A stretch of DNA of 63,983 nucleotides, counting the filler, from Rhizaria sp. SCN 62-66 (Eukaryota), in assembly GCA_001724265.1 (NCBI GenBank). It is 4 parts of 4 records of this genome, joined end to end, with 100 filler letters (N's around TTAATTAATTAA, not from the genome) between each part and the next. Parts side by side here need not be neighbours in the genome. Positions count along the whole stretch, not along the records: positions 1 to 19,692 come from MEDY01000464.1; positions 19,793 to 39,189 come from MEDY01000465.1; positions 39,290 to 58,628 come from MEDY01000466.1; 1 more part is not named here. One strand, given 5' to 3'. Shown piece after piece: positions 19,176 to 47,193 of the stretch. The notes beneath the pieces were generated by a model, which was not told where the DNA came from, searched no databases, and saw only the letters and a program-made list of their open reading frames with translations. A program made the translations under genes and the position numbers. Position 1 is the first letter of the stretch. Every line of letters starts with the position of its first letter.

Positions 19176-22100
19176 TCAGTCGTCACTGTCGCTGCCGCCG
19201 CCGAAGCCGCCGCCGAAAGATGCCGCGGCGGCGCCGGGGGCGCGCCTGCGGACGAGGACGACCTCGTCTAGCTCCATTTGCAGCGCCGGCTGCGCGCCGC
19301 TCAGTGCAGGCATGTCCCAGTCGGCCTTCTTGCACTTGCCCTCCGCCGCCGCCGCGGCCGCGGCGGCAGGAGACGGCTTCGCACCGCCAGCGCCAGCGGC
19401 ACCGTCGTCGTCGTCGTCGTCGTCGCTGTCGTCGTCGTCCGAGTCCTCTGCCATGCGCAGCTCGTAAAGCGCGGCGTCGAGCGCGGCGAGCGCAGGCTGC
19501 CGCTGCTGCTGCTCGTACAGCAGCAGCGCCAGCGCCACCACGTCCGCGTTGCTCATGTGCGACCACACGGTGACGGGCAGCGCGCGCGCGTGCGGAGGCA
19601 CCCACACCTGCAGGCGCCGGCCGCGGCCCGTGCCGGCCCCGGCGCCCGCCGCGCCCGCGCCGCCCGCGCCCGCGCCCGCGCCCGCCGCGGCANNNNNNNN
19701 NNNNNNNNNNNNNNNNNNNNNNNNNNNNNNNNNNNNTTAATTAATTAANNNNNNNNNNNNNNNNNNNNNNNNNNNNNNNNNNNNNNNNNNNNGCCGCCGC
19801 CGCGAGCTCGGGCTCCGGCGGCGGCGCGGGCGGCGGCAGCGGCGGCGGCGGCCGAAGCCGACAGTACCGGCTCCTGCACCTGCGCCTTAACGCCCAGCGC
19901 GGCCAGCCCGCCCACCAGCGCCAGCATCGGCGGCGCGGCGGTCACGGCGCCCGCAGTCGCGCTCGCAGAGGCAGACGCGGCGCTCGAGCCGGAGCCGGGA
20001 GCGGGGCTCCCCGCGGTGAGCGCGTGGCCCGCGCCGGGGCCCGCGAGCGTGGCCAGCGGCACGGTGACGGCGTCGAGCGCGAAAGGCCGCACGCGCGCGT
20101 GGCCCTTGGCGACGGCGGCGGCGAGGCGCTTGCGCTCGAGGTCGAGCCCGCGCAGCGCGGCGGCGGCGAGCACGTGCGCGTCGCCCAGGCGGCGGGGGGC
20201 CTCCTGGCTGCACACGGCCGCGAGCAGCTGCGCCGCCGCGGCGGAAGCCGCAAGCGGCGACACCGTGCAGCTGACGGGCGGGAAGCCGGCATAGCCGCCG
20301 CTGGTGTAGTGGCTACCGCTGCTGTGAGCCGCGGAGAGCGTGACGTCGTTGGTGAGCGCAACAGCGCGGAGCAGGCGGCGCAGCGCGGTCACAGTCCGGG
20401 CCTTGGCTGCAGCGGCGTCGCCGTCCGCTGCGAACGCAGAAGCCGAGCCAGCAGCGTCGGTGCTGAGCGAAACAGCACATTCAGCGATTGTGCCCGTCGC
20501 ATGGGTCGCAGCGGCAGTGGCGAGCTCGAGCGGACACAGCACCGCTGCGCGCACGAGAGCCGCGTAGACGGCGTCGCTCACGCTGTCGCCCGCACCGGGC
20601 GCAGCACCGCTCGCCGGGGCAGGAGCGGCGACAGCGGCGGTCGGCGCAGCGCTGGCTGCGTCGGCCACCGGGGTCTGCGTCGGCTGCGGTGCACTCAAGT
20701 GCGCGTGCAGAGGCGCAGGGGACCACGGCGAGGCGGGCGTGGTCAGCGCGAGCGCGAATGCAAGGAGTGGATTGCGGGACGCCGCGAGGTGCAGCGCCGC
20801 GTCGACGCTGAGCACAGCGCCGCCCCCGGTGTTGCCGCTGCCGCTGACAGCGTCACCGTTCGCCCCAGCAACCATCGCCGTCGTGGTGGGGGCGACTGCG
20901 GTCTTGCGGGCAGCGGCCGCCTTGCCCTTGCTGCCCGCTTTCGCGCTGCCAGTGGCGGCCGCGATGCTGCTGCTGATGCTGCTGATGTTGTTGTTATTGG
21001 CGGGATTGGCGGCGGCGGCGGCAGCTGCGTCAGAGTCGGACTCGGCGTCGGACTCCGAGTCCGAGTCGGAAACCAACAGGCCTGTGGCCGCCGCGGCCGC
21101 CGCGAAGGCAGCTGAGATAGCGTTGCGCTTGACGCGTTGCGCAGCGGCCTCGGCTGTCTCAACGGGCTCAGCTACAGCAACAGCGTTCTAGACATCGGTC
21201 TCAGCGGCTGACGCAGCAGAGGCTGACAAAGCAGTCGCAGTCGCGGGGACGTCGACGTCAACCATCGCAGCGTCGGCTGTATCTGCGCCAGCGGCAACGT
21301 CGTCGCCGTGGCTACCACTGCCGCTGCGAGCGTCCGCGGCCATCGCGGCCTCGGGCGGCGGCGAGGTGGAAGGCGTAGTCACCTCCGAGTCCGCCATCGC
21401 GACACCTCCAGCGCCGGAAATGGAGAGGTCCGCGCCCGCCGCAGCGCTGCCGTCGACGCTGTTGCTGCGGCTCATGCCCTCGGTCAGCAGATCGTCCCCG
21501 CCGGCAGCACCCGCGCTGGTACTGCTGGAGCCAGCGCCGGCGCCTGCAGCAGTCGCGGTCCCGCTGGCGCTGGCGCCGGCAGCAGTCTTGGTAGCCTTGG
21601 CGCCCTTGCGCGCGCCGGCCGCGCCTGCCCCGGCCGCGCCGCCGCTGCCGCTGGCGCGCGCGGCCTGCGCCTGCGCCTGCGCTTGTGCCTGCGCCTGTGC
21701 GCGCGCCAGAATCAGCGCCGCAGCCTCGGCCTCGGCGGCGGCGGCGGCGGCGGCGGGCGCGGGGGAGGCCGCGGCCGCGGCCGCAGCGGCAGCGGCAGCG
21801 TCTGACGCCAACAGCGAGGCAGAGACAAGCGCCGCGGCGGCTGCGGCGGACGCGGCGGAGGCAGCGGCGCCGGAGCCGGCGTGTTGTTGCAACTGGAGTT
21901 GCAGCTGGAGCTGCTGCTGGTGCTGCGAGGGCAGCGACGGCCCCACCGCCGGTGCCTGGCCCTGAGACAGCAGCAGGAGCAGCGGCGGCAGCGACGGCGG
22001 CGGCGGGGGCAGCCACAGCGCGTCGCTGAAGCCGCTGCTCGTGCCCATGTGACTGTGGGTCGAGTGACCGTGAGTAGGCTGCCCGGAGGCGCTGCTGCTG

Positions 22101-24010
22101 CTGCTGGGGGCAGCTGTGGCGCTGTTAGAAGACGCTGACGCGTTGGCGCTGGCGCTGGCGCTGGCACTGGCGATTGCGCTGTCTGTATCCGTGGCACTGC
22201 TACTCGACTCACTCTCTGTTGTTGTTGATGGTGTACCTGTTGGCGCAGGTGCAGAACTTGCGCTCGTGTTTCCACCAAGCGCAACTGTGTTAATAGCGGC
22301 ATTCTCGGCATTCATGTTAGTCGCAGATGCGAGTGCGAGCACGGCGCTTGTGGCAGCATCAACTAGACTCAAAATGTTATTCGGAGTGTCATTGGAATCA
22401 GTGGCAGCGCTGACGCTCTGGGCAGTCTCCGCGTTGGCACCGCCGCCCGCAGCAGCGGCCGCAGCAGCGGCAGCAGCGGCAGCCGCTGCCTTGCCCTTCT
22501 TGCTCGCGGCGGTAGCCTTTGTGCCAGCAGAAGCAGCAGCAGCAGGAGCAGTCGCGGGCGCAACAGCGGCGCTTAAGCCCGCACCAGCCTTTGTGCCAGC
22601 CTTTAACTGCGGCTGCGGCTGAGAGTCTGCTGCGGCTGGTGGGGGCGCAGTGAGTGCCCAGCTCCGCGCCTGCGCAGGCTGCAGCAGCGCGGCTACCAGC
22701 GCTTCGTGCACACGGCTTAACTTCAGTTCGCCGCGGCTTGACGTTGCGGCAGAGTCGTCCGCAGCCGTGCCGGACGCAGAAGTGCCAGCAGCCGTGGCAA
22801 AGGCGTCGCCAGCAGCGTCGCTGCCACTTCCGCTTTCGCCACCATAGCCCATAGAAGCTGACGCTGAAGCTGGATTGTAGGTACACACTGGCACAGGCGC
22901 AGTCGGCGGAGCCGCTACAGAAAACAGAGACGCGAACGCGCCCAGCAGCGGCTCCTGTAGCTGGGCTTGTTGTTGTTGCTGTTGTTGTTTCGACTGCGGG
23001 TCATACGTGGCGGCAGCGAGCGTGAGCGCGGCGGCGGCCTCGACCACAGCCGCCGCGCGCTGGCCCGCCACGGCGCCCGCAACGAGCAGCGCGTCGCCCG
23101 CGGCCGCCGCGGCCTCGGCCGAGCCCAGCGCGCGCGCGGCTGCCGCGGCGGCCTTGGTGGCTGCGCACACGGCGGCCGCGGCGGCGGGGTCTGGCCGCAG
23201 CGCGGAGGCCAGCAACGGGGGCGCCGTGGCCGCGGCCGACAGCGAGCCCGCGACCGCGGCCGCGGCGGTCGACGCCAGGGACGACAGCACCGAGGCTAGC
23301 GCCGTGACGTGCGACGACGACGCCGCGCTGTAACCGCCGCCGCCGCCGTGGCCGTGGCCGTGCGCCGATTGACCGTGCGCCGAGTGACCGTGAGCGGAGT
23401 GACCGTGGGCCGAGTGACCGTGCGCATGTGGGCCCGAGATCGAAGTTGCGGCGATGTGCGAGGCTGCGATCGCGGCCGCTGCGCGCTGCAGACGGCGCGG
23501 CGCAGCGCCAGCGGCCGCAGCAGTGGCGGCGGCAGCGGCAGAAGCAGCTGCAGCGGCGAAGGCGGCAGAACTGTCAGCCGACGCCACAGAGCCGTCTGGA
23601 GGAAGACCGGTGCCGCCGAAAGAGGCGGTATACGTGGACGACGCGGGCGAAAGCGCGGGCATCGAACCAATGGCCCCGGACGAAGCGGCGGAAGACGCTG
23701 ACGCAGCGGCGGCGTCGGTCACGTTTGCGGGAATGGTGGGTTGTTCGGGTAGAGTACCAACGTAGCCCGTGCCTGACGGCGTGTCGAACATGGGCTCGCC
23801 ACCGGCCGCGGGCGACGCTGCAGCAGCGCCGGAAGCTGCGTCTGTGGCGGCTGAGGACGGCGAGGACGACGAATCGGCGGTGTCCGCGCCGCCAGCACCG
23901 CCGGGCGCGGCTGCGGCCGTGGCGGGAGGCAGTGCGGGACCGTAGGTCGGAGGAAGCGTGGAGGAAGGCGTGCCGCCGCTGCCGGTGCCGGCGAGGCGGG
24001 CAGTAGGCAT
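19176..24010 (-). CDS. Very long Ala-rich protein with C-terminal Sin1/Avo1-type CRIM-like domain; spans the assembly gap at 19693-19792 and contains an in-frame TAG at 21188-21190
   Basis: ORF 24010-21188 and the frame below 21187 are the same frame, separated only by TAG. The piece left of the gap reads LQVWVPP...LPVTV...ADVVALALLLYEQQQRQPAL...YELRMAED...DWDMPAL, resembling the Sin1 CRIM consensus (Y.LRI.EDDGE.D.DFP.L). Stop is TGA. Joining across the gap is inferred. Confidence 0.55.
19693..19792. other. Artificial assembly gap spacer (44 N + TTAATTAATTAA + 44 N)
   Basis: Exactly 100 nt; the 12-mer places stops in all six frames; identical to the other two spacers. Confidence 0.98.
23348..23430 (-). 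repeat. 15-bp coding repeat encoding HGHSA/HGQSA x4 within a His-rich tract
   Basis: Translation reads HAHGHSAHGHSAHGHSAHGQSAHGHGHG. Confidence 0.85.
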
Positions 24011-25281
24011 GCTGGGCCTGGCCTGGAGTCGAGAGCGAGAGGCGCTGAAGGGGCTAAGGGAAGACTGTGAGCAAGGAATGGATGCTTTGGAAGCGGTCTA
24101 TGGGTGAAGATGAGCTGCACAAAAAACATAATTCAAATATGGTGTAGGTTAAAAAGCGGAGTTTCGCGAAATCTTGGTGATTTCCGGTGGAATCATTAGA
24201 TTCTCACCCCATAGAGCGCGGAGATAGGTTCAAGGTCAAGTCAAGACGAACAGAGTGCCGAGGACCCTTAACGGCGCACCAGCACTGTCAGACTTCCGTC
24301 AATACAAATCTCATTATTACCGGCATATAGACGGCAGGAATGGCAATTGTTGCAAAAACGCACATATTTTTCACGACAATGTACGCGGCATGCAGAGAGG
24401 GAAATGGTTGGGCGGCGACCTATCGCGGAAGAAAAAGTTTTCGGCCCGACTTTTTTGCGAACCGCTCGTGTCAAGTCTCCGACCGCTAGATATCACGCTT
24501 GTTCAACACGTTCTCGTGTATATTTAGTGAAATAATGATGTTCTGAGAGTACCATATAGGACATCTACTGTTCTTCAGTTATTGTTTATCTATACTCGTG
24601 CAACTATGATCTGTACCACACCCCTGCATCTCCGAGGCGACTAGCCTCAACGCGTGTCAACTCAATACACAAACGTGACTCGACATCTATATAAAGCATT
24701 GGAGACATAACCAAGCAACGCTTTGAGATAGCATAACGATTTGTAACTTGGGAGTGTGTTATTTACTCTCCAGCATCCCGCAGCCCCGTGCATGTTGGTC
24801 GGACAGAGCTAACGCAGACAGCTGCTTGATCATGTGCCATTAGTCTGAACCTAGCCACAGAGCATGTGTCGTACCGATAGTGCATCTAAAACATACTCTC
24901 AGGTGTGTAGCATGTGCTATAGTACACTTTTACTTTTTACCACCGCGCGTGACAATCATGAATACGTTCATCATATCTCTTGTTACGACACTCCGCACCG
25001 CTTCTGCAACTCGCCGTTGATGTTCCATCTCTCAACCGGATTTCTCCGTCCAAGTCTTTTAGACAATCACGCCGGTCTTCCGCCGTATACCTGAATAGGT
25101 CATTTGTAATATTTTTTTGGCTACACTCCGCTTGCGCCTGACCACAGCGTCCCAGCTCACTTCCCCCGCGCCCCCCTTCCTCCTCACTGCCCCTCTGCTC
25201 CCCAGCACAACCACAACCCCCTGCCTTCGAACAGCCTTGCTCGCCCGCTCTCGCTCTGCATAGAGTCTGTCTCTTGCCGCG

Positions 25282-28200
25282 ATGTTCCGCCTCCGCGCCG
25301 CCGCCCTGCCCCGCGGCGCGGTCCCCACCCTCCCGGCCTTCCCCCGCGCTCCGCCCACCTCCACGACCTCCGCTGCAGCGAGCACAGCCACCACAGCCTA
25401 CACTCGTCCTTCTCGTTCTCTCGTCTTCTCTGCCTCGAGCGTTCCCTCCGCCCGCGTGGTCCACGTGGCCCTTGCACCCCCGCGGCGCGCATTCTCCGCG
25501 GGCACGTGGCGCGGCGCCTCGCTGCCCCAGTCGGCGCTCACCTCGCAGCTGCCCGAGGTCGCCGCCTTCGAGGCCGCGCTCGCCGCCGCGCGCTACGCGC
25601 CCGCCGCGCAGCAGCTCGAGCGCGCGGGGCAGATTCTCGCGGCCTTCCCGGCGCCCGGCGCGCGGCTGGACCTTCTGCTGCGGCGCGCGCGCCTGGCGCA
25701 GGCCCAGGGCCGCTTCAACGAGGAGGCCGACGCGATCACACAGGCGCTACGTATGCTGCCCGACTCCGCCACCGCCAGCGCCAGTGCAAACGCCAGTGTA
25801 AACGCCAGCGCCAGCGCGAATGCGGCGAGTGGCGGCGCTGCTGCAGGGGCGACTGCGGCCGCGGCGGACTGTGAGCTGCTGTTCAAGTCGCCTCTTGCGC
25901 TCGCTCTCGTGAGCAGCTGCAACACCGCCAACAGCAACTGCAAAAGCAACAACAGTAACAACGACGAGACTGCCGCTGCAACTGCGAGTTCGAGTGTGCA
26001 CTATGGCTCTGCACGAACAACCCCTCTGGGTCTGATCGGCACCCCCGCTCTCTGCCCCGTCTCCTCACTGCGGCTGTCACTGCTGTGCGCCCTCGTCCTG
26101 GCCATGCTCCGCGCCGGCAGGCCCTTAGACGCTCTAAGGGTCCTGGCCCCGCAACTCAAGCTCGCCGCCCTCGCGCCCGCCGCCGCCGCCGAAGCGGACA
26201 CCGGCGCTCTCGCCGCCGCCGCCGACGCCGACACCGACGCCGACCTTGCGCCGGAGCGGTGGTTTCCTCTGGCGACGCTGCTCGACCTCTCCGGTAAAGC
26301 CCTCTCGGCCCTCGCCGTCACCGCCACCAGCACTGGCGCTGGCGTGGGCGCTGAGTGCGGTGTGGCCGAGAGCGGCCGCGGTCGGACTGGAGACCCGCTG
26401 CCGCGGCTGGAGCGTGCCCTGGTCTCCGCGGCGGCCGTCGCTGTGGACGCCGCGGTTACCGCGCGCCTGTCGGAGGAGTGGGCCGCGTGGCAGGAGCAGT
26501 CGGGGGCGCGCAAGGGCGACGTCACGACTACGATGAACAACAGTAACAGCAGCGCTACTCCGTCAGCTCCTGCTGCTGAGTCTACGGCCGCCCCCACCGC
26601 CCCCGCTGGCCCCGCTGCGACTTCGACTGCGGCTGCTGCTGCGGCTGATACCGTGACTGCTGCTGACGGCGATGCGTCTAAGGGTGCCTTGCCCAAGTCT
26701 AAGGGGGGATTCAAGCTCACGCTTTCCTCCGTGGCCAAGGCCGCGCCCGGCACCCCCGCCGCGCCCGCCCCCACGCTACCGCCCCCGCCCACCTTCACTC
26801 AGAGCGACAAGGCGGCTGATGGCGCCGGCGCTGGCGCCAGCGCCAAGAGTGAGGCCGAGGCCGAGGCGGAGGCCGCGCTCGCCGCCGCCGCTGCCGCCGC
26901 CGCCGCCATCACCGTGGTGCCCCTGATCCCCGCATTCACCCCCGGCTCGAGCGCGAACGCCTCTAATGCTGCAGCTGAAGCTGCAACTGCGACGGTGGCT
27001 GCGCTGTCCGCCGTGACCGGGCTGCCGCCGTCCCTGCTACCAGACGCCCTGTGGCGCGCCGCCGCCCCCGCGCTCGCTGCGCACGGCCTCTCCCCGGAGC
27101 TCACTGCAGCGGCCCTGCGCGCGCACGCTGCCGCGCTCGCCGCCGCCGTGGGGCCTGCGCGTGCACTCAGGGCCGCGCTCGCAGTTGCCGTCGCCGATAA
27201 CAGCTCGATCTCCAGCAATAAGAACGACGGGGATGATCAAAGTCAAGCCGCGTTACTAAGCGTTCTGGAGACCGCGGCCGCCGTCGTCGCCCCGCCTAGC
27301 GCCGCCTCTGACGCGGCCGCCGCCTCTGGCGCGTCTAAGTGCCCGCCCGTGCGGAGCCCGTGGCAGGTGCAGAGCGTGGTCGACTCGAGCGTCGCAGTAC
27401 ATAGTCTGTTAGGCTCGGTCAAGGACGTGCTAGCGCTCGACAGCGGCAACAAGCGCGCCGCCGCAAAGGCCGCCGCGGAGCGCGTCGCCGCCCTCAAGAC
27501 CGCCGCTGCGGCCAGTGGCTTTGGGTTCGGCGCGGCGCCCTCCTGGGCCGCTCCGCTGGATCCCTGGTTGTCCCCGCTGCCCTCGTCAATCCACCACAAC
27601 ATCACCGATCTACCCAGCGACACTGACAGCGCCGCCCTCCTCGCTGAGGCCGAGGCCGCGGCCGCCGCCACCTCCGTTGCGAGCGCTGCCGCCGCGTCGC
27701 TGGCGCTGCAATGGGGCGCCGCCGTGGACGCCTGGTGGAGGTCAGCCGCGCTCCTCGCAAAGGCCCACGTCAACGGCGCCGGCGGGCTCTCGGTCACCGG
27801 CGCTGACGCCTCCACCACCAACGTAAACGCCCACACGAAGAACGACACTGCTGACGTCAGCAGCGGTGGCGACGGCATCGCGCCTGGGCTGCGGTGCCCG
27901 CTGCTGCATCTCGCGCCCGCGGGCCCGCGCGTCCCGGCGCTCGCGCTAGCGCTCGGGTCTCGCTCCGTCGCCAACCGCGCGCTGGCGCTGTCTCTCGCGC
28001 GCTGCGTGTTCCAGGACGCCGCGCTGCCCACGGGGCCCGCGCTCGCGCCCGCCGCCGCTGCCGCCGCTGCCGCCGCCTCTCAGTCTCAGAGCGCGGATGG
28101 CGATGATAACGCGGTTGTTGTGGTGAGCGTGGAGCAGGCGGGCTCTGCGGCCGCCGCGGGCGAATTGCGCGCGCACGCCCACTACCACACTGCCGAGAGC

Positions 28201-30334
28201 CTCGTCGCGCTGGCGTCGCTCATGGGGCAGGGCGACCCCGTCAGCGCCGAGGGGCTCTTCCGCGGCGCTGCCAGGGAGGTCGCAAAGGTCGCCAAGAACG
28301 CGCAAGGTACGGATAGATGTAGAGTCGCAAAGACATGTTTTAAGCTGCAATGTCAACATTAAAACGCGAAATGTGTGTGGATTTTTTTGTATTCATGTTT
28401 TATTCGAGCACTGTATTTTGTTTTTTCATATTGTTTATATGTTGCATATCGTCTCGTTTTCTTTGTTTCTGTGCTTTTTAGGGCTCGACCTGTCGCTGTC
28501 ACTGAGCCTGTCGCACGCGCGCCTGCTCTCGCGCCTCAGCTGGAACGCAACTTCCCGCTCCACCGAGACCTTCTCCCTGCTTGCGGCCGCGCGCGAGCTG
28601 GCCTGGGACGCCGCCGCCGCCGCGGGACTGCCCTCAGCGGCCGCCGCGAGCGCGCGCGCGGACGCCGGGTACCTCGTCGCGGTCACAGACAAGGCCGCGC
28701 GCGACGCCGTGGCCGCCGCCGACGAGGCCAGCGCCGCGCGCTCCGCCGCCGCAGCTGCCGCAGCAGCCGCCTCCGCAGCGGTGCGCGCCACCGCCGCAAA
28801 CATCGCGCAGCCCGGCGACGTGACCGTGGACAGCGTGGTCAACGGCGGCCTCGACGACGCCGAGACCGAGGACGCGACGTGGGCTGGCTACACCTCGAGC
28901 GCAAGCGACGACCCGCTGCCGGGCGTCGACAGCGAGCTGGACCTGGACCTCACCGCGCAGCTCGAGGCCGAGCTGGACGCCGAACGGCGCCACGGGGGCC
29001 GCGACGCGGGCGACGAGACGAGTGAGGAGGACTTAATGCGCCAGTTCAACGCGCAGCAGCCACGGCAGCAGCGGGGGCGAGACGGCGGAGCTGACGAGGA
29101 GCAGGAGCGGCTCGAGAGCGAGCTCGCCATGCAGGAACGCGAGCATGCGCGCCAGCTCCGCGCGCACAGCCAAGAGGCCGCGGGCTCACCCTTGGCCTCT
29201 GCGTCGGCGTCCGCGCAGGGCCCGTTCGGCGGCGCGTACGGCGACGGCGGCGACAGCGGGCTCGACTCGGACATGGAGGCCCTGCGCGCGCAGATGCGGG
29301 GCGCGGGCGCCGGTCGCCGCGGCGACGGCGGCGACGACGAGAACGAGTTCGCGCACCGGCACAGCGTGCACACGGTGGTGAGCAAGGACAACTTCAGCAA
29401 GATCCAGCGCCCGCGCGCGGCAAGCGACAAGGACAAGAGCGGTGACAAGGACAAGAATGGCGGCGACGGCGGCGCGGGCAAGACTGGGGCCGGTGCAGGC
29501 GTTGCTGTTACGACGACTGTGACGACTGTGACGAAGACCGCTGTGGCGAGCAAGACTGCTGCCGCTGCGGGTAAGAGTGCTGGCCAGAGTCACAAAGACA
29601 GCAAAGACGCTAAGTTTAACCACAAGACCCACGCCCGCGGCGCTGCCGCTAGCGGCTACAACAGCTACAACGACGACGGCGGCAATGCGCGCCGCTTTGC
29701 CACCACGGCGGCCGCTGTTGGCGTCAGCGCCAGTAGTGGCAGCTACAGTAGCAGCTATAGCTCCTTCGCCACCGCCGTCAACTCACTTTCTGTCAAGGCA
29801 CGCCAACAGCTAACGCTGCAGCAACAACAGCACGTTCAGCAACAGCAGTGGGAGCACCGACTGCGCGGCGACAACGTGCGGCTTAACTTTTCGTCGTCGG
29901 CGTCGCGTTTGTTGCAACCGCCGTCGCTGCCGCCCGCGCGCTGGTTCCCGGGCCGCACAGTACCGCTGGCCTTCACAGTGGCGACGGGACACGACTTGGT
30001 GCTGCCCCCCAGCCAGGGAGGGAAAGTTAAGCCGCTGCCGCGCCCGTGCCTCAACCTCACCCGTGTCAGCAACAAGAACGACACCAGTTGCAGCCGCGTG
30101 AATGCCGACGCCGACGCCGTGGCGAGCAGCGCCACCGCGCGCGCTGTCCTCGATAACAGCAGCGGTGACGGCGATGGTGACGCGCCTGGGCTTGTGTTGG
30201 AGCCAGGCAAGGTGGCCTTCGTTGCGCTGGTGACCGAGGCGATCTCGCCGCAAACGGCGTTCGTGCACTTTTACGACCGTCCCGCGGTGCTCCGCGGCGT
30301 TGCCGCCACGGACATCGAACGTTTCGCCATCTAA
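25282..30334 (+). CDS. Large Ala-rich protein with mitochondrial-presequence-like N-terminus and TPR-like helices, 1625 aa; join(25282..28306,28482..30334)
   Basis: N-terminus is Arg/Ser/Ala-rich with no acidic residues (MFRLRAAALPRG...RRAFSA). TPR-like segments: AAQQLERAGQIL...RARLAQAQGRFNEEADAITQAL and LVALASLMGQGDPVSAEGLFRGA. Phase-1 GTACGG...TAG intron at 28307-28481. Stop is TAA. Confidence 0.65.
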
Positions 30335-31269
30335 GTACGTCTTCTCTGGTCAACACACCACGGCGCGAAGTCGAAGCACAATCTTTAAGCACCATCATGT
30401 GAGTTATTTATTTGTAGCAAACAAGCTACTGATACTGTTCTATGTTTAAGTAATACCAAATGTATATATTGATACACAATAAAAGTTACACCTTCCAGTA
30501 GCAACACGAGTTCCCCGCTAAACCAAACGGTTACGTTGCTCGGCTTTGCGTTAGTGGTGACAAATTGCGTTGGTGGTGACAAAGATCTTGTCAAAGTTCA
30601 TGGAAATTCAGGTCGCTATAGAAGTATATTATGATTGTCGATTTGATAAATTTAGAGTTATTTTGTTTTATGACCTAATTTTCGTCGTAAATCCATTATT
30701 ATTCTTTGAGAAATTGCTTGTTTATGCCGTTTTTTCGACACCAAGTTCGGCCTCAATCTTGACTCGCTCGACAACATCTCTGACTGTTGCTGCTGCTCTC
30801 ATGTTGAGACTGAAACTGGCGCTGCTGTGGCATACTGAACCTGTATACTCTGCTGTTTTATGATTCGTGACGCTGAATGAATTATGGCAGAGGCAGGTGC
30901 GGTTGCGGCTAGCAACGGCGATCGACTAGCACTGACATGACATGACCAAACCCTCCGCAGGTTTGCTGATGCTGTTCCTTCAGTCGTGCGATGCCACAAC
31001 TGTTGCAGCCGCAACAGCGTACACCCATGACGTTTGGCGTGTTGAGGCTCTCGGCTTATACAGCAGCTACTGCGAGTCCTGTGGTCGGCACTCAAAGCTT
31101 CAACTTGAACCACTCGTCGTCGAGAAGTCGACATACTATACGTCTTAAACCCGACCGACCAAACAAAATTGACATAAAACAAACAATACCGCCCACTCAC
31201 ACACGTGTCATCAACTGTTCTTATTTTCCGCGACGCAAACCAGGTTTGCTTGCCTTTGCGCAAAGCTAG

Positions 31270-33677
31270 ATGTCAGAACTGGTGCTCTAGGTCCGTGCCA
31301 GCCTCCACGCCGCCATCGCCACTGCGCTCTCCGCGGCGCCGGACACGAGCGAGGCAGCGAAAACGTTGTTTGATGCTGTCCAGCGCTTTTTTACGTAGTG
31401 CCCCGGAGACGCTACGCGTGAAGTGAGTCTTACTTGTCTCAATACGGGCGTTGTCGACTGGTTGCTTATGGTGCTCGCACAAGATACGGCACTTCTTGCT
31501 GCCCATGTCAGGGATATGACGGAGGAATCTGAGCCCGACGACAATCAAGACGCGGAAGATGAGGAGGGCCAATATCTGAATGACATGCAATTAAATGCCA
31601 AGATCTCTCTTTTATCGATCTTCGCGAAGGAAAGTCTGATCGCTCGGTCTCTGATTATCAACCACAGGGCTCAAGGCGCGCACAATGCAGACGCTAACAC
31701 AACTACAACCAAGACTGGGCAGAGTTGCATTGACACCGATTCCCCAGACGTCGCTTCACTGCTGCTACCGGTTCTTCAGCTGCGTTTTTCTCCCTACATC
31801 GTTGCAATGGCGTTTGATGTCCTCGTGGTCGCCTTCAACCAGAGCACGAGGCTGCAGCAGCAGCGTCTGCTCGATCTGGGATACTTACAGCTCTTGTGTG
31901 GTCGTCGTTGTACGAAGGCGACCCTATCGAACTATGGAATTCAACAACTTCTGCGACACTTGATGGTTTTAAGTGAGGATTACTTCAGCGCCACACCCAA
32001 CATCGGCAGCACCCGCACGAACAGCTTCTCCCGTGCCTCAACGACCGTGAATGATCATAACACGAGCAGCGGAAGGTCTCAAGAGGCAGGGCAGGCGCTG
32101 CCGGCGTTGCCCACCGGCTTATCATACCGTGACCTCATCACGAGAACTGACATTCTCGCGCGCATATCGGCCAGTCTTTGTGGCTACGACATGCCGAAGA
32201 TTATTATCTCGCTGTATAGCCCTAAACGCGCAGATGTGAATTACTTAGGCCTCATTGAATCCGATTCTGAACATTTACGCGCTGTTCTCCAAGGCCACTT
32301 GATCGACCCAGTTTCAAACTTAACCTCGTTTCTCCGCAGCATCATGACTGCGGCGCACAGTAACACCGGTCACGGCGCGGGCGACGCGGCCAAGGCTATT
32401 TTCAACAGCCATATAGCCTTTAGGCGGCTTGCGATGCACGTCTGCTCTGTAGCTGAGTCCAGCGCGTCTGACTGGGGCATGGCGTGGTGTGAGGAAGACG
32501 ATGAAAGCCACGACACTGCAAAGTACGTCACGAGTTTGCACAGTCATTAGTCACGATCATATTGGGATTGAACACAATAACGACGAAATCTATGCAAAAC
32601 CCGCGAGTATTTTCAATGTGAAACGCATTTAAATTGCAATTATGCTTACGCTGCTTCTGTTGTGTCTAAATTGCCTAAATTTTAAACAGGGAAGTGCTCA
32701 AGGTGCTCGCAGCAGTTGCGACCCTGGGACTGAGCTACCAAAGGGCGGTGTTAAGCTGTTGCGCTCTGCACGCAGTGTATAAGTACATCGCTGAAGCACC
32801 TACAGCAAGTATGAACCTGGAAAACAACAGGTGGCGTGTTGCCAAGGCGACGATCACTGTATTCACCAACTTGCTGGCACATGCAAACATCTCAGAGAAT
32901 GGTAATGCTACCTGTGACAAAAATGCGAATACTAGCCGTAACACGGGCGAGTGCAATACTGACGGTTGGGATCACTGTTTTAACGTAGCTTGCTTTGCTG
33001 AACAGTTTAGTGTCGTTCGTTACCTCACCAGGACTCTTGTCGCTGCCGTCAGCAAGGGACCGGAGGCTCCGAAAACGTTGATTAAACACGTGGTGGCTCT
33101 TCTCTTTGTGTTTCTGACCTTGAACAATACGAACCTCTCGCGTGTACTCCAGAAGAAGGTAATGGTGACACTTAACACGTTGTCATCTCTTGATTACAAC
33201 TCTGACTTTTTTAATGTGACTGATGTGACTCTTATTTCTGCGGCAGGTGGCGAAAATGACTGCAGCAACAGCAACGGCGAGGGCAGTGCGTCCCTCGGCG
33301 ATGCCGACCCTGAGGCCGGTGACTGCGGCGGCGACAGCGACTTTGACGCACTGCTCATGGGCCAGAGGGGGCGCCGGTGGAAAGCCATTGACTGTGCGGA
33401 TCCAAAGCACGACGCCAACGGCAATTACATCGGCGGCTACGACTGCGTCTTCAAGTTCCACCTCTACACCGATGACGATGTGAATGCGCTCGACCAGTTC
33501 CTCGATGCCGGCGGCCTGGACGCACTGGCACGGATCAAGCTGACTCCGAACATTGGAGACCGTCGGCTAACCGCTCGCGATATCAGTGTCGTCAGGTACA
33601 GCAGCAGCACTGGATTTGAGCAGTACCGTAATTTGTGCAAGTTCTTGGCAGAGTGTGGCGAGGTCGTGAACAAATGA
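31270..33677 (+). CDS. Armadillo/importin-alpha-like helical repeat protein, about 746 aa, with in-frame TAG codons at 31288 and 31396; join(31270..32522,32690..33677)
   Basis: ARM-like segments: CLNTGVVDWLLMVL, QQRLLDLGYLQLL, QRAVLSCCALHAV, QFLDAGGLDAL. Phase-2 GTACGT...CAG intron at 32523-32689 joins the two ORFs. Stop is TGA. Start is uncertain: ATG 31270, or ATG 30991 which adds a third TAG at 31267. Confidence 0.6.
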
Positions 33678-33973
33678 TCGAAGTGGGGCTTCATGTCAAC
33701 TTGAATACACACAAAGCAAGCTTGATCACGATGTATTATTTTGAGACAGACATTGGTTTCAAGAGTGGATTTTGTATTCATAATATATCCACAAGACACA
33801 TTGTACGCGCGATAATCAAGCTGCATCGTCCACTATCACAGTTCAATAACATCACATTGTGTAACCTCAGTAACTCTAATCACTAACGACGCACGCCAAC
33901 ATTGCGCTGGTACAGGCTCTGGCCCTCTGGTCCTCTGCGATCTCAAAACCACGCGCATCACCGCGTCGCGTGT

Positions 33974-34686
33974 TCACTGCGCCTTCTTCGCGCTGGCGGC
34001 GGGCCCGCGCACGGCGGGTGTGAGCGAGCACGAATGCAGGTGGTGGGTCGAGTCGACCTTCTCCGCGCGTGCGCCGTGCGACACGTAGTTCCCAGCAGTC
34101 TCGCTCTCCAGTGGCAGCGGGTAGAACGACGGGTTCACACGCCCCCATAAGCGCTGGCCGCGCGCGTCGGCGTCCATGCCGGCCGCGGCCGTGGCGGCGG
34201 CGGAGGCGGCGGAAGGGGCGGCGCCGGTTCGGGTGCCCATCTGCATCGTGGGGCGCCCGCGGTTGATCTAAGCGGAACGAAACAAACGCAAATAAGAGAC
34301 AGTAGTGAGCCTAAAAAGCCACAAACAACTATTTTCTGGTGAATGGCATGCGGTTCGTGGAGAAACCTGAAGAATGAGCGCATTTGATGGGAGAACGGAG
34401 GACGTACGTAACGCTGCGTCTGTTGAACCTGGGTGGTGGGTGTCCAGTTCTCAGGGCCCTGGAAGTTCTCCGTGTAGAGGGACGAAGGCTTGTCCTCAAC
34501 GGGAGCAAAACGAGTAGGCTTGGTGACGGGGCCGGTAGCGCCCATGTCGAGCTCAGCGCCCGTGGCGGCAGCTTTGCGAGCAGATGCAGCAGCCTGACCA
34601 ATCTTGGTGTCGCTGGGCTTCAGGTGTTCGTCGCCAGGGCAGACCCACCTCTCTCGCCAGCTCCAACTACCAACGGGTAAAGACAT
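33974..34686 (-). CDS. Uncharacterised 190-aa protein, possibly a ciliary microtubule-associated protein; complement(join(33974..34267,34408..34686))
   Basis: Phase-0 GTACGT...TAG intron at 34407-34268 gives a continuous frame ending in TGA. Short motifs SLYTENF and SETAGNYVSH recall microtubule-inner-protein repeats (function is inference). Confidence 0.6.
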
Positions 34687-39015: not shown

Positions 39016-39189
39016 ATGGCTAAGATCACTGCTGCCCGCAAGGCTGTCATTGCCAAGCGCAAGGGTTCGCTCGCGAAGCTCTCCAAGTCTCTCGCCCCCA
39101 AGGTCGTGAACAAGAGCGCCCTCCCCGCCAACATCACCCCCGGCACCGTCCTCATCCTCGTTGCCGGCCTCCACAAGGGCAAGCGCGTT
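39016..39189 (+). CDS. RPL6: 60S ribosomal protein L6 (eL6), 5' fragment truncated by assembly gap
   Basis: MAKITAARK...ALPANITPGTVLILVAGLHKGKRV matches the eL6 signature ITPGTVLILL.GRF.GKRV; highly biased codon usage. Confidence 0.9.
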
Positions 39190-39289
39190 NNNNNNNNNNN
39201 NNNNNNNNNNNNNNNNNNNNNNNNNNNNNNNNNTTAATTAATTAANNNNNNNNNNNNNNNNNNNNNNNNNNNNNNNNNNNNNNNNNNNN
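39190..39289. other. Artificial assembly gap spacer (44 N + TTAATTAATTAA + 44 N)
   Basis: Same 100-nt structure as the other spacers; different genes lie on either side. Confidence 0.98.
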
Positions 39290-39415
39290 ATCGTTGACTC
39301 CAAGGCTCCCATCGTTGACTCCAAGGCTCCCATCGTTGACTCCAAGGCTCCCATCGTTGACTCCAAGGCTCCCGTCGTCGACGCCAAGGCCCCTGTCCTC
39401 GATGCCAAGGCTCCT
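39290..39415 (+). repeat. 21-bp coding tandem repeat atcgttgactccaaggctccc (IVDSKAP) x4 plus two degenerate copies
   Basis: Directly visible; the array runs into the gap and probably caused the contig break. Confidence 0.92.
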
Positions 39416-41486: not shown

Positions 41487-44400
41487 TCAGAAAGCGAACT
41501 CGAGCTTGTCCTTACGCCCCTCGGCGTCGAGCGGCGTCCAGCCTACCACAGCGCCTTCGCGCACGTGCTGGATAGACGCGCGCGCCAAACTGCGGCGCCG
41601 GCGGTTGGCCACGATCGAGACCGCAATCACGTGCTTGTCCAAGCGAGCACTGTCGTCACTGGGGCTGCTCTCCGTATCAGTCGAGATATTACCAGTCGCA
41701 GAGTTATTATCAGTTGCAGCCCCCGCGCTCGCGCGACTGACGGCCTTGACGAACGCCCCATCCCTGTGCTTGATTGCGCCGAGCGCGCGCTGCACGTCCC
41801 CACGGCCGACGACCGAGGCCGCGATGGACGCCGAGAGCTGTTTCATGCGGCGGCCATAGCTGCGGAGCTCGGCCAGCGAGCCCTCGTCGATGCCCACGGT
41901 CAGCGACACCACGAACATCGGGCCCGCGCCGTGACTGCTGCCATTGCTGCTCTCGCTGCCCGCCGCAGGGGCAAAGTCGCCAGTTGGCGGGGCTGCTGTG
42001 CGCGCCGCAGTGTTGACCATGGGCGGGAACGAGACGATCCAGGGCCCGTCGAACGGGACGCCCTCGACAGGCGCCGCGGCCTCCGTGACGAGGCTCGCGC
42101 TGCTCAGGTCAACGCTCGTCCCTTCGGGCGCGTTCGCGGCCTGTGACAGGAGGCTCTTGAGGCGCTGCTGCCGCTGCAGGTGCTGCGTGTTGACAGCGCT
42201 CGCGTGCTCGCAGCGCGCGCCCAGCGACGCGCAGAGGGCGCGCAGCACGCGCGCGTCGTGCTCCTCTTCGCTCAGCCCCGCGCGCACGGCGCCGCGGTCC
42301 TACGAGATAGCAAGTAATGATGTGATGCAACAAATGTAGAATTATGAGAAAGTGAGAGATATCGATGTCAGCTGAGGTTGTAGATAAGATAAACATTGGA
42401 CAAGGACAATTGTTGCGTAGTAGTCAGTTTCAGTCTCATGACGGGTTTGTGGGTTTGTAGCGTACCTGGTCGGCGAGGTCGCGCAGCAGCCAGTCGAGTC
42501 GGCGCAGCAGAGGCTCCGGGTCCCCAGCCCGCAGCGCGGCCGCTACGGCCCGCGTGGCCTGGCCGTCGCGCGCGCGCAGCCCCAGGTCGCGGACCGTGGC
42601 GGCGAGCAGCGGGCCCTGCAGCGCGCTGCGCAGCTCCGTGTTGGGCAGCGACAGGTACAGCACGTCCACGGGCGGCTGCGCGGCGCTCGCGCGGGGCCCG
42701 CGGTACGAGACGCCCGAGCGCGGGCGTCCGCGCGGGGCCGTGGCCAGCGCCGCGGCCACGGCGTCGGGCGCCGCTGGCAGCAGCCCGCTGCCGGTGAGCG
42801 CGAGAACACCCGAGTAGAACAGCTGCACTGCCGTTGCAGCGCTCAGAGAGTCGCCACCCGCGTCGACGTTATGGACCGGGGCGCTGATGTTGCTATTGTC
42901 ATTAAGCAGGAGCCCGGGCCCAACGGTCGCCGAGATGTACGCCGCCGAGGCCGCCGACGCCGCGGTATCAGGCTCGTCGTCGCCCTGCTTGCCCGCACAC
43001 ACGCCACTCGCGGGCACAGCGGCCGTGGTGCGCACAAGGTCCGCGGGCGCGACGGGCGTGCGCTGCCAGAGCGCGCGCAGCTGCGGCAGCGGCAGCTCGG
43101 CGAGGCGCGGCAGCGCGGCCCGCGCAGCGACGGCGCGCGCCCACACAGGCGCAAAGCTGCCGCTCACTAGCGCTGCAAACACCGACGGGTAGCTCGCCGT
43201 GGGCGCCACGCGCAGCGGCGCGAACGTGCCCTGGACCGCGCCCGCGCCTGCGTTTGCGCTCGCAGCGGGGATGCCGCTCACGGAGGCCTGCTTCTGCCCC
43301 CGCGATCGCGGCGGCGGGGCCAGCCTGGCCGTGAGCACGGCGGCGTCGGGCAGCGCGGGGTAACGGAAGCCACCGCAGCGGTCCATGAGCACAACCGCGG
43401 CCTCGACCGGGGTGAGACGCAGCTGTTCCGCGAGCCTGCGCCACGGCGCGCCGGGGGCGCGGTCCGCGGGCGTCGCGCCGTGCGGGTCCGCCAGCGCCGC
43501 GGCGTCGGCCGCCGACACGCCCAGCGCGGCCGCAGACAGCGGGCTGAAGGTCGCGTCCACGAAGCCTCGCTGGGACGGCTTTGCACCGGCACTCACACTG
43601 GCGTTGGTGCTCGCGGTGACCTCGCTGCTGGCGGCGAACAGGGGCACGAGAGCGGGGCCGGCACGCTGCACGCCGACGACCACGGCGTGCGACAGCGCAA
43701 ACTGCTGGTGTTTCTGCTGCGCGCGCGCAGTAGCGCCGGGGCCGGACTCGCGCAGCGGCAGCGCGGCGGCCGCGCGGAGGCCGCGGAGGAAGGACGCGAC
43801 AAGGAACGCGGCCGCCTCGTGCTCCCGCGCCACACCCGCGCTCACCGCGCCAGCAATCGCTCCCACGCCTCTCGCGCGCGAGCGGTGGCACGTCGAATCA
43901 GAGCCGGAGACGGCGTCGGCGAACAGCATCGCGTCCGCCTCAGTCTCAGCGTCGGACCCGAGGAACCCGCGGCCGACCGCGCCGCCGCTGCCGCCAACAC
44001 AGTCGCCCCAATCGCCGCTGCAGTGCTCCTGCTCCATCTGCTCCATGAGGGGCACGAGCAGCGGCGCGTCGTAGTTGTCCACCAGCACGGCGACGGGCCT
44101 GCCCCCGCCGAAGCGTGCGGCGGCCGCGACGAGGCGCGTGACGCGGCCGGCCAGGTCGCGGCGGCGCGGCGTCAGCCCCTCGCCCCACAGCGCGCTCACA
44201 GCGCCGTTCACGCCGCCCACCACGCTGTCCAACGCCAGGGCATCACGAGGAGATGCGGCACCCGCGCTGGCGCCGTAGAGGGCCTCATAGTGCGCGAGCT
44301 GGCCGTCGAGCAACGCAAAGGCCGCTGCGGCGCGTGAGGCGGCCTCGGCGCGGCCCGTCGCAGACTCGCAGCCGGACTGTGACGCCCACTCGCGGGCAGC

Positions 44401-47193
44401 GGCCACGCCCGCGGCCACGGACGCGGGCTCGGCAGCGGCCGCGGCGCAGAACACTGCGCTCTCCCCGTGCTGCTGGCGCTGCTGTTGCTGTTGATTGAGA
44501 GAGTTCTGCGCAGAGTAGCCGACGCCCAGCCCGAGCACCGCGCCGCTGCCGATCGCGGCGGCGGCGTCGCTGCCGCCGGATGAGTGTTGCGTCGCCGCGA
44601 CGAACGGATCGTCCGCGCGGCCCAGCGCGGCGAAGTCGAACCGCAGCACGACGCGCTCGTGCCACGGCCACTGCACGTCGCCCGCGCTGCTGCTGCTGTT
44701 GTTGTTCGAGACATCCGCGCCCATGCTCACGTCCATGGCGTTGTTGTTGCTGTCGACTGCCAGGCCGCGGAAGAGCTCCCTGCGGCCCGCGAGCAGCGCC
44801 TCTGCGAGCGACAGCAGCGTCGACTTGCCAAACCCGGGCGGGCGGTGCACGACGCAGAGCGGGGCGGCCGTGAGCAGGCGCGCCGCGGCGAGCGACTTAT
44901 CCACCACGGCGCAGCGCGCCGCGCGCAGGGCGGACCAGTGGCGCGAGGCGGGCACGGCAGCCAACGGCAGGCAGGGACCCGCGCGGCGCGGCGGGCGCGG
45001 GAAGGCCGTCGACGGGAACGACGTTGAGAGGAACAGCGGCATCGCGAGCCCACTCATGCTCGCACTCGTGGGTACGGGTACTGGGGGAGCACGCGCCGCC
45101 ATGGGCGACGACGCCGCGGACACTGGCCTCAAGTTGACCGCAGCTGCCGCGGCGGCTGCAGCGGCGGCGGCGGCGGCGGCGGCGGTGGAGAGGTGCGCGT
45201 GCGCTGCAAAGTCGGCGACTGTGTCTCGCTCGGCCGCGGGCACGGCGCTCAGCGGTGGCACGCACTGAGGCGGCGCGCTGGCACATGGACTGGCAACGGC
45301 ACTGACGCGGCTGCCGTCCGCCGCAGAGGCGGCTTGCGCACCACGCGCAGCAGAGTGGCAGTGGCTGGAGGAGTGACCGTGGGCCGCGGAGAGCGCGGCA
45401 GAGGGGAAACGCTGGCTGAGTGCGAGCTGCGACGGGTGCACGCCGCCGGTGGAGCTCGGAGTGAAGCGGCCGCTGTGGACGCTGCTGCCATTGAATTTAC
45501 CAGCCGCAGCCGCAGAGGGAACAGCGGCCGCAGTGGCGGCAGCGGCCGCGGGCCCACGCCACGGCAGACGCAGCTGCACTGGTTCACCGGCAGTCGCACT
45601 CGGATTCGCATCCTGATTGTGGCCCAGCGAGTCACTCGAAGCCGTCTGAGCAGTCTTTGCGCCATTGCCAGTAGCGCCAGTGACAGTTACCGTGGGCTTG
45701 ACTGTGAGGAGCGGCGGGGCGCCGCGCGGCGCCGCGGGCAGCGCCGGCTGCGTGATCGCGGCCACGGCCGGCGGCAGCAGCGACAGCGCCGGGGACAGCA
45801 GTGACGCGAGCGCCAGGGCGTAGCTCGCGCTCGCCTCGGCGAGCTACGCACCGGCGCTCGCGCCTGCCTCGGTGGCCTCGGCAGCAGCCGTGGCGGTCGC
45901 CACGCGAGCATTGTCCTTGCTCTTGGTTTTGAATTTGCTCGCAGGGTCTCTGCTTGCAGCGCTAAGGGACGTAGTCGCGGACTGATCTTGCTGTTGCTGC
46001 TGCTGCTGTTGCTGCTGTTGAATCGCGAGACCCTTAGACTGTGTCCCCTTTGACGGAGCACCCCTAGACTTCCTCAACGTCGCAGCGCGCTTAGCTTGCA
46101 AGCGCTACTCGCACGGCACACACACTACATTTGAACTCGTCACCGGCGCAGGCCCAGACTCTCCGCGCGCACTGCTCGTGTCCGTGACCGTGTCAGTGAC
46201 CGCGAGCGCGTCAATGACCGTGAGCGCGGCCTGTGCGGCGTGCCAGAGCGGCCGCGGCAGGTACCCCAGCGCCGTGGGTCGGCGGAACTGCAGCTCCGCG
46301 CCGCAGCAGGCGCACGCCGCCACGGCCTCAGTGCGCGGGCCCTCCGCCGCGCCTAGTGCGGCCAGGGCGGGGGACGCGGAGGAGTGGGAGGGCTGTGGCG
46401 AGGGCTGTGACGCGGTTGGCGCGGCTGCGGTGGTAACGGCTTCATGCTCCGCAGCTTGTGCGGTGACGAGTTGCGGCGCGGCACGGTTGCGCTGTTTACG
46501 CGAGGGAAAAGTCACCGGGATCATGTCGCCGTCTTCATCGTCCTGGAGCATCTCCAGGGGACTGCGGGCAGACCTCGCGCCGAAACCGACATTGTGACTA
46601 AGATCGCTGTTGGCGTCGCTGTCAGAGCGCGCGCCAGTGTGTTGCGCGAGCAGCGCGGCCCACTGCGCGCCCTGCGTCTGCTGCTGCACGTGTTGCTGTG
46701 TCTGCGCTTGCGCGGCCTGCTGCTGCTCCCGCAGCAGCCGCGACTATGCCCTGGGCATCGAGAAGAAGCCGGTCGCAATCAGCTTGGCGTTGCGGCCCGC
46801 GTCGGCGGCCAGCAGCCGCGCCTGCAGGTCCGAGTACGCCTCGGGTACAAACCGCGAGAAGTCGCTCGCAGAAGCCGAGTCTGCTGTCCGTTGCTGTAGC
46901 TGTTGCTGCTGATCAGGAGGCCCGCTGCCGCTGCGGGGAGCGGGATCGTTGGCCTTGGAGCCACGAAGCGGCGTTGCGCGAGAGGACGATGACGCGTGCC
47001 TGTACGGCGAGCACACAACAGGACACAACTGCGTCGCCGATGCAGGACCGCAGATGTTGCTGCTCACTGTCACAGTCAGCGAGGGCCGGAGTGAGAGTGC
47101 GCTGACACAGGGGCGCGCGGGACCCAACAGGCGCGCGGAAGGCGCATGTGCGTGCGGGTAAGCGTGCGCCAGTGCAATGAGGCGAGATGCCAT
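41487..47193 (-). CDS. 1846-codon protein: presequence-like N-terminus + YqeH/NOA1-type Zn-finger + bacterial-type AAA-ATPase-like domain + degenerate PD-(D/E)XK-like C-terminus; three in-frame TAGs; complement(join(41487..42299,42466..47193))
   Basis: ORFs 47322-46744, 46689-46105, 46101-45844 and 45765-42436 share one frame and are separated only by TAG. Motifs: CACCGAELQ...P...GYLP...VCVPC; VVDKS; HRPPGFGKST; LFRGLAV; VVLRFDF; VLVDNYDAPL; LFYSGVLAL; LSLPNTELR; ALGAIKHR. Phase-0 GTACGC...TAG intron at 42465-42300. Stop is TGA. Confidence 0.75.

Follow-up and report, generated by a model that had tools for sequence, protein, structure and literature searches.

Does the organism behind this DNA translate TAG as an amino acid while TAA and TGA remain stops, as a preliminary description proposed? 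The window, by which we mean the whole stretch of DNA that was analysed (64 kb in total), consists of four metagenome contigs joined by linkers:

19693-19792, unstranded: linker between two contigs, composed of N44, TTAATTAATTAA and N44
39190-39289 and 58629-58728: further linkers of the same kind at contig joins

The source organism, a GC-rich eukaryote that has not been cultured, belongs to wastewater and bioreactor communities and shows weak affinity to Rhizaria. The EMP70 protein of the window groups beside Plasmodiophora, a rhizarian, in a single-gene tree that carries a long-branch warning (SH-like support 90). Because the organism recurs in wastewater and bioreactor samples from several studies, it can be resampled; a scan of contig collections gave no match to it. 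Exons reach 75-80% GC in this genome, introns are 166-168 nt long with GTACG donors, about 13 GC-to-AT boundaries within the window bear GTACG, and TGA is the main stop.

All of the TAG positions and peptide contexts given in the preliminary description are correct. It had counted three unrelated genes as continuing across TAG; this holds for two of them, designated genes 1 and 3, and the third, gene 2, is ambiguous. In-frame UAG is therefore found in the coding sequence of two genes, at four sites that we refer to as the strong TAGs. Gene 1 carries one of these:

19793..24010, minus strand: gene 1, an Ala/Ser/Gln-rich orphan coding sequence by translation, with its ATG at 24010-24008, open up to the contig end at 19793
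21188..21190, minus strand: in-frame TAG of gene 1, codon 941 counted from the ATG, in the context GTC TAG AAC

Gene 1 is 1,406 codons long, its 3′ end is missing where the contig end cuts it at 19793, and no Pfam family matched it. GC is 0.68 upstream of the TAG and 0.67 downstream. Coding potential was compared in all six frames with a codon model trained on other genes only, the TAG-bearing genes being left out. The coding signal restarts immediately past TAG 21188 (+20.0), and the 465 codons that follow hold a frame margin of about 143 bits over the other frames. The other three strong TAGs lie in gene 3:

42466..47193, minus strand: long first exon of gene 3, with its ATG at 47193 and a GTACG donor at 42465
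46744..46746, minus strand: first in-frame TAG of gene 3, GCA TAG TCG
46105..46107, minus strand: second in-frame TAG, GAG TAG CGC, two residues past a CxxC pair
45844..45846, minus strand: third in-frame TAG, GCG TAG CTC
41487..42299, minus strand: probable last exon of gene 3, an in-frame ORF and GC-rich segment with TGA at 41487 and GC 0.30 beyond

The 5′ bound of the last exon is TAG 42300, a likely acceptor, to which the donor of the first exon would be joined. An AAA-ATPase_like domain occupies residues 803-872, numbered on the frame translated from 47343. Frame margins in gene 3 are about 12, 39 and 20 bits in segments A, B and C, and the coding score around TAG 45844 is +14.9 upstream and +17.6 downstream with the frame unchanged. 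Taking genes 1 and 3 together, the frame containing the TAGs was the best of six in every segment before, between or after them (five segments), and each of the other five frames holds 1-13 stops in those segments.

Within 150 nt past the strong TAGs GC is 0.58-0.80, compared with 0.30-0.58 past 20 tabulated TGA or TAA ORF ends, one exception having 0.64. The next in-frame ATG after TAGs 21188, 46744, 46105 and 45844 is 105, 65, 335 and 248 codons away, respectively. Such long gaps, together with a coding signal that resumes at once past 21188 and 45844, make a separate downstream gene unlikely. We also scanned 46 GC-rich segments (37 kb) for stops located well within the best frame and found the four TAGs, with no TGA or TAA. 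Not counted in this result were TAG 25261, which is in a 5′ leader, TAA 2150, which is 4 nt off the edge of a short segment (1958-2153) with no single best frame because its top two are tied, and a further three short segments with the same kind of tie.

The TAGs of gene 2 are of a different quality, as they fall at or near the start of the open frame:

31270..33677, plus strand: gene 2, an orphan, with exon 31270-32522, intron 32523-32690 with a GTACGT donor, and exon 32691-33677 ending in TGA
31288..31290, plus strand: TAG within the first 7 codons from ATG 31270, either a sense codon or 5′ leader
31396..31398, plus strand: TAG at codon 43 from ATG 31270, with an acceptor-like T-run upstream; ambiguous

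A further TAG, at 31267, precedes the ATG. Over its first 43 codons gene 2 gave a frame margin of 7 bits, and a 45-codon 5′UTR control reached 12 bits; TAGs 31288 and 31396 may therefore be leader instead of coding sequence.

If TAG is a sense codon it should be missing from gene ends, which we called by the drop in GC, with RNA not the basis. Our tally of 19 ends comprises 13 TGA, 6 TAA and no TAG, so that UAG is unused as a terminator in this small sample. At a TAG share of 15%, 20% or 25% of stops, the chance of 0/19 is P = 0.046, 0.014 or 0.004. The preliminary description had listed 18 ends, none of them TAG; the absence is upheld, but the TGA at 19176 sits on another contig and does not terminate gene 1. 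In non-coding DNA TAG is no rarity: the first stop within an intron is TAG in 2 of about 11 cases.

The main rival to sense TAG is a standard code in which the TAGs are true premature stops, in nonsense alleles or truncated genes. On this account gene 1 is a recent nonsense allele; in gene 3 the N-terminal part is lost and translation begins at a Met further down, with two more stops arising later in the untranslated stretch while codon bias stayed undecayed. We consider this unlikely. With the codons used here, a random single-base change to a stop gives TAG in 63-65% of cases, CAG to TAG being the commonest, which weakens the earlier argument from seeing TAG and never TGA or TAA; the chance that all four would be TAG is about 0.17 under this rival. 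Three of the four strong TAGs fall in 300 codons of one gene, within the 5′ 450 codons of gene 3, and an N-terminal truncation with accumulating stops would look alike. The affected genes are all orphans without homologues, the margins in segments A and C of gene 3 are modest, and the sample against which sense TAG must be judged is two genes and 19 ends. TAG is also absent from the conserved genes, with none in those bearing Pfam domains (TLC, EMP70, MFS, FHA, THOC5, THH1).

Premature stops leave the 0/19 TAG terminators unexplained, however, and neither the other lesions nor the decayed codon bias past the first stop that would mark a pseudogene were found. Genes 1 and 3 (1,406 + 1,635 codons) are free of frameshifts and of in-frame TGA or TAA, and codon bias within gene 1 is strongest past the TAG, where it is as good as in the FHA control (-5.005 and -4.956 bits per codon). 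A DNA contig of X3, a run from a separate study, matches 46024-47219 over 1,196 nt with 0 differences, so TAGs 46744 and 46105, which it includes, are fixed in an independent sample. The stretch is also transcribed, as a polyA-RNA contig (X5) spans 46125-46395, between these same two TAGs. Finally, a 2-kb leader with in-frame ATGs would precede the AAA-ATPase part of gene 3, which counts against this account given scanning initiation.

Less probable still is that TAG remains a stop and these particular TAGs are bypassed, through context-dependent or ambiguous near-cognate readthrough, U to C RNA editing, or unusual GC-rich introns that lack a GTACG donor. The extreme rarity of TAG (4-6 in about 11,000 codons) and the acceptor-like T-run before TAG 31396 would suit such a bypass. 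The base 3′ of the strong TAGs is A, T, C and C, whereas a purine follows 14 of the 19 terminators, 11 of those being G, a difference that is not significant (Fisher p = 0.10). The readthrough motif with which we compared the TAG contexts is of the CARYYA type; the six nucleotides following the strong TAGs are AACGCT, TCGCGG, CGCTTG and CTCGCC, with no common 3′ context of the kind that programmed readthrough would share. As the preliminary description had noted for GTACG, no donor is placed to excise the TAGs: neither GTA[CAT]G nor GTRAGT occurs within 400 nt of the four strong ones. In the RNA/DNA contig comparison no letter change or GT..AG joint is listed at the TAGs, and none of the listed RNA pieces bridges a TAG. 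Readthrough would again leave the absence of TAG terminators unexplained.

A caution on open frames comes from the antisense shadow frames of real genes, which are long and broken by TAG only, such as the minus-strand frame 47884-51747, which lies opposite the FHA gene and contains 7 TAGs, so that open frames alone prove little. That DNA of 65-80% GC merely keeps all frames open, the TAGs being normal terminators with GC-rich untranslated sequence beyond them, is very improbable overall: many non-coding or antisense frames of 150-400 codons are indeed open, shadow frames are broken by TAG only and a GC-rich 5′ leader is present at 25146-25282, but while the idea is possible for gene 2 it is contradicted for genes 1 and 3, where one frame wins the six-frame test in all five segments and every other 3′ region is AT-rich by 150 nt.

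We therefore return to UAG as a codon translated as an amino acid, with termination at UGA and UAA only. The data point to this rather than prove it, and we lean modestly in its favor. No other single account explains four in-frame TAGs and 0/19 TAG ends as well, so the original proposal stands to that extent, on the evidence of two genes in 64 kb, both lineage-specific and of low complexity. The TAGs occur where GC3 is lowest (0.65-0.79, compared with 0.84-0.90 in MFS, FHA and THOC5), which is consistent with a non-preferred sense codon. The TAG-bearing genes have no homologue spanning a TAG from which the amino acid could be read: searches with genes 1, 2 and 3 returned nothing from another organism across any TAG, only fragments of the source organism itself or nothing, leaving no aligned residues to tabulate as the preliminary description had suggested. 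By precedent it would be Gln or Leu. The CUA-anticodon search it had also suggested found no tRNA gene in the window (ARAGORN), Rfam gave no match there, and no eRF1 gene lies within it. By analogy with known UAG-only codes, UAG would be decoded by a tRNA-Gln or tRNA-Leu derivative whose anticodon is CUA, and eRF1 would no longer recognise UAG efficiently. The in-frame TAGs are confined to lineage-specific genes of weak codon bias, the distribution expected of a codon that was captured recently or is decoded poorly.

More tentatively, we speculate that the source is a free-living wastewater protist, not a ciliate and possibly a rhizarian, still early in the capture of UAG, in which UAG was lost from gene ends and has come back, as about 0.04% of codons, solely within fast-evolving genes of weak bias. 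It would then be a natural intermediate in the reassignment of a stop codon and an independent origin of the rare UAG/UAA uncoupling. If TAG is sense, the organism adds another lineage to a known, rare kind of code, and its very GC-rich genes with very low UAG use give a view of early codon capture. Standard- or bacterial-code gene callers would then truncate its genes at TAG; the database fragments P0004, P0005 and P0006 are genes of the source organism cut at TAG.

UAG-only codes bear on the question of why reassignment usually takes UAG and UAA jointly, and the sources cited here name few nuclear examples: one sainouroid rhizarian, Iotanema and some phyllopharyngean ciliates. The preliminary description cited the first two correctly. 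Standard-code premature-stop alleles and pseudogenes resemble the present case in that non-conserved genes carry in-frame stops, most of which would be expected to be TAG, but here frameshifts and other stops are absent, codon bias is intact and 0/19 ends are TAG. In Rhizaria sp. exLh (Sainouroidea), UAG is reported to encode Leu with UAA and UGA as stops (Panek et al. 2017, PMC5304391), and in its ribosomal protein genes UAG is described as the rarest Leu codon, absent from half of them. Like the present organism, exLh is a non-ciliate protist that disfavours UAG, and here too UAG would be the only codon reassigned. It differs in that its conserved genes, as reported, each hold several UAGs at Leu sites, whereas ours hold none, and in dwelling in an insect, the source organism being from wastewater and bioreactors, with its relatedness assessed on one gene. 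In Iotanema spirale (Fornicata) UAG is given as Gln, with UAA and UGA as stops (PMC5304391). UAG is likewise uncoupled from UAA there, and Gln is plausible here, CAG being the commonest codon one transition from TAG; Iotanema, however, is an anaerobic metamonad with no link to the source organism, and UAG is described as frequent in its conserved genes. The further UAG-only reassignment in phyllopharyngean ciliates was, like ours, inferred from environmental assemblies (2024, PMC11687900). That report describes suppressor tRNA genes, widespread UAG and UAA as the preferred stop, whereas the present genome combines GC-rich exons and 166-168 nt introns bearing GTACG donors with TGA as its main stop.

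The window holds nuclear DNA of an uncultured eukaryote. Because its contigs lie end to end, no feature is to be read across the linker points, and gene 1 (minus strand, ATG at 24010) is truncated by a contig edge at 19793. The linkers, and the gene and introns used to describe gene style, are:

19693-19792, 39190-39289 and 58629-58728: linkers (44 N, TTAATTAATTAA, 44 N) joining the four contigs (~19.4 kb)
6784-8724, plus strand: EMP70/TM9SF gene, interrupted once by an AT-rich intron of 166 nt
7343-7508: intron of the EMP70 gene, with a GTACG donor
32523-32690: intron of gene 2, with a GTACG donor

All four contigs share one style, with exons of 65-80% GC as opposed to introns, leaders and trailers of 30-45% GC, and GTACG donors stand at about 13 GC-to-AT boundaries in the window. 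Low-complexity proteins rich in Ala, Ser and Gln are numerous in every contig; HGHSAHGHSAHGHSA, poly-Q, poly-A and (AQ)n tracts are common in this organism's proteins, as in gene 1 at 23300-23400, and the repeats underlying them are CAG/GCA/AGC. Pfam domains in genes without TAG include TLC, EMP70, MFS/OATP, FHA, THOC5 and THH1/TOM1. Among the matches listed, the closest relative of the EMP70 protein is P0048, a database protein from a JGI data set (73% identical), the others reaching at most 48%, and the best named match is from Plasmodiophora brassicae (47%). A FastTree tree of 117 of the 120 matches listed (those of at least 400 residues) placed the window protein and P0048 next to Plasmodiophora (SH-like support 90); the program itself warned of long-branch attraction. 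These identities and this single-gene tree would give a lead to rhizarian affinity and no more. An ESM Atlas search with the EMP70 protein returned nothing beyond the EMP70 family itself.

DNA of the window recurs in metagenomes from wastewater, bioreactors, activated sludge and fuel cells, being at least partly present in fourteen runs from 8 studies, with at least half of the sampled words found in 4 of the 14. Neither the organism nor its 73% relative appeared in the metagenome and genome contig collections scanned: gene 3 had no match in metagenome contigs, P0048 matched 80 loci there (top identity 52%), none with this genome's make-up, and the sole match of two genome-contig scans was to the FHA domain of a protein from a planctomycete MAG.

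The preliminary description proposed that TAG is read as an amino acid, since three unrelated genes appeared to continue in frame across it; its TAG positions and peptide contexts were all correct. Open frames are weak evidence in such GC-rich DNA, because the antisense strands of real genes likewise hold long shadow frames that only TAG interrupts, and these are a trap for calls of TAG reassignment made from open frames alone. One such frame faces the FHA gene (48011-52105); it occupies 47884-51747 on the minus strand, runs for 1,287 codons with TAG read through and contains 7 TAGs, each a CTA codon on the FHA sense strand. An initial codon model scored shadow frames as coding (29 TAG, 12 TGA and 9 TAA matches with coding on both sides) and was dropped. 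Given this, we applied several code-independent tests, among them a six-frame comparison for which the codon model was built from 7,531 codons of ten other genes. In this comparison the frame bearing the TAGs ranked first of six in every segment of gene 3 (minus strand, ATG at 47193) and on both sides of the TAG in gene 1, with the following margins over the other frames:

46747-47193, minus strand: gene 3 segment A, ~12 bits
46108-46743, minus strand: gene 3 segment B, ~39 bits
45847-46104, minus strand: gene 3 segment C, ~20 bits
19793-21187, minus strand: gene 1 past its TAG, ~143 bits (score of -5.005 bits per codon)

The score of gene 1 past its TAG is on a par with that of the FHA control, and the coding score recovers immediately past TAG 21188 and TAG 45844. 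The next in-frame ATG after the four TAGs lies 105, 65, 335 and 248 codons downstream. GC content in the 150 nt past these four strong TAGs is 0.58-0.80, versus a fall to 0.30-0.58 past 20 tabulated TGA/TAA ORF ends (one exception at 0.64). A scan of 46 GC-rich segments (37 kb) found four stops deep inside best frames, TAG at 21188, 45844, 46105 and 46744, and no TGA or TAA. Excluded from this count were TAG 25261, which lies 22 nt upstream of its gene's ATG; TAA 2150, which is 4 nt from the edge of a short segment (1958-2153) where the top two frames tie; and the short segments 18387-18549, 33919-34268 and 62038-62208, where the top frames tie and the stop-free frame matches the adjacent gene.

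Same-frame codon bias thus upheld two of the three genes, 1 and 3, and left gene 2 (plus strand, 31270-33677) ambiguous. Of its TAGs, that at 31267 is upstream of the ATG at 31270, and those at 31288 and 31396 fall within codons 1-43, where the frame margin is 7 bits; as a control for that margin, a 45-codon 5′ leader scored 12 bits. A T-run resembling a splice acceptor precedes TAG 31396.

We defined a gene end as the first in-frame stop past the last coding segment, followed by AT-rich DNA. The 19 such ends use TGA (13) or TAA (6) and never TAG, an outcome with a probability of 0.046, 0.014 or 0.004 at an assumed TAG share among stops of 15%, 20% or 25%. All 18 ends reported earlier are among the 19, although the one at 19176 closes a gene of the first contig rather than gene 1. 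TAG is not scarce in this DNA generally: of the stop triplets in its GC-rich parts, 24% are TAG, and in two introns the first stop to be met is a TAG (7381 and 32548). Terminators across the window (gene ends at 10694, 11510, 18135 and 40748, among others) have a preferred context, with 14 of the 19 followed by a purine, which is G in 11, versus A, T, C and C after the four strong TAGs, a difference that is not significant (Fisher p = 0.10). TAAGCG accounts for 4 of the 6 TAA stops. A GTACGT donor motif lies directly 3′ of the TAA ending the gene at 30334 (30332-30340, plus strand), and may reflect a 3′ UTR intron or alternative splicing in which the stop is skipped.

Comparison with sequencing runs covered one contig, that of gene 3. 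A DNA contig from run X3, a separate study, matches 46024-47219 with 0 differences, so TAGs 46744 and 46105 are not errors of a single assembly. A polyA metatranscriptome contig from run X5 spans 46125-46395, between these two TAGs, so this stretch of gene 3 is transcribed; among the RNA pieces listed for the contig, none bridged a TAG. Joints and loose ends in the comparison were mostly low-complexity matches to other organisms.

Together, we lean towards TAG being read as sense. Over ~3,000 codons of coding sequence there are four in-frame TAGs and otherwise no lesion, and we favor this reading because TAG ends none of the 19 genes and the four strong TAGs are located in the least GC3-biased parts. 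An unlikely alternative, though one to be taken seriously, is that the TAGs are nonsense alleles or truncations under the standard code. Judged from how 10,999 codons are used, a random single-base change to a stop would yield TAG in 63-65% of cases, and finding only TAG has a chance of ~0.17 under this model, as against 0.003 from triplet frequencies. Moreover, three TAGs fall within 300 codons of gene 3, the affected genes are all orphans, and no Pfam-recognised gene contains one. However, nonsense changes explain neither the missing TAG terminators nor the intact frames, nor a codon bias that is undiminished past the gene 1 TAG. It is more doubtful still that the TAGs are bypassed by readthrough, editing or odd introns; the earlier observation that no GTACG donor is placed to splice them out holds, with GTA[CAT]G and GTRAGT donors absent within 400 nt of all four. 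That the frames are open by chance is very improbable, and each of the five alternative frames in the gene 1 and gene 3 segments has 1-13 stops.

A search of 1.84 billion representatives with gene 3 gave 42 matches, namely three of its own fragments and 39 weak ones to the AAA part only. The fragments are database proteins broken exactly where the TAGs lie, with P0006 stopping at TAG 46744, P0005 lying between it and TAG 46105, and P0004 beginning downstream. Gene 2 matched only itself, residues 800-1406 of gene 1 had 0 matches among candidates of 773-2461 residues, and for the stretches flanking the TAGs, Pfam and NCBIfam scans at lenient settings gave noise only. At 46024-46341 (minus strand), gene 3 encodes two CxxC pairs ~60 residues apart, TAG 46105 being two residues past the second; the first pair and the following ...LGY.P weakly and not significantly resemble the N-terminal zinc ribbon of YqeH GTPases (TIGR03597, E = 0.26). 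Further downstream, gene 3 encodes an AAA-ATPase_like domain (PF09820, E = 2e-10). AlphaFold2 around TAG 46105 was uninformative (mean pLDDT 45.7), and ESM Atlas leads for gene 1 past its TAG were under 0.9, to HEAT/TPR-like fragments. The window yielded no tRNA genes and 0 Rfam matches. These searches gave no homologue across the TAGs. By codon usage, CAG is the commonest of the codons one base change away from TAG, which together with precedent suggests that TAG may mean Gln or Leu.

In one ciliate, UAA and UAG reportedly encode different amino acids (PMC10553269). Among the papers listed in our literature searches, none described a wastewater or activated-sludge eukaryote that reads UAG alone as sense, and those on protists with GTACGT donors did not point to this organism. 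PMC5304391 describes reassignment of UAG only, to Leu in the sainouroid Rhizaria sp. exLh and to Gln in Iotanema spirale, and PMC11687900 describes three such events in phyllopharyngean ciliates. The placement of TAG in the least GC3-biased parts matches the pattern that PMC5304391 describes for UAG in the ribosomal protein genes of exLh. If real, the code of the window organism would make it a candidate further member of this group, one that stands out in that its genes are very GC-rich, end mostly in TGA and use TAG very rarely.
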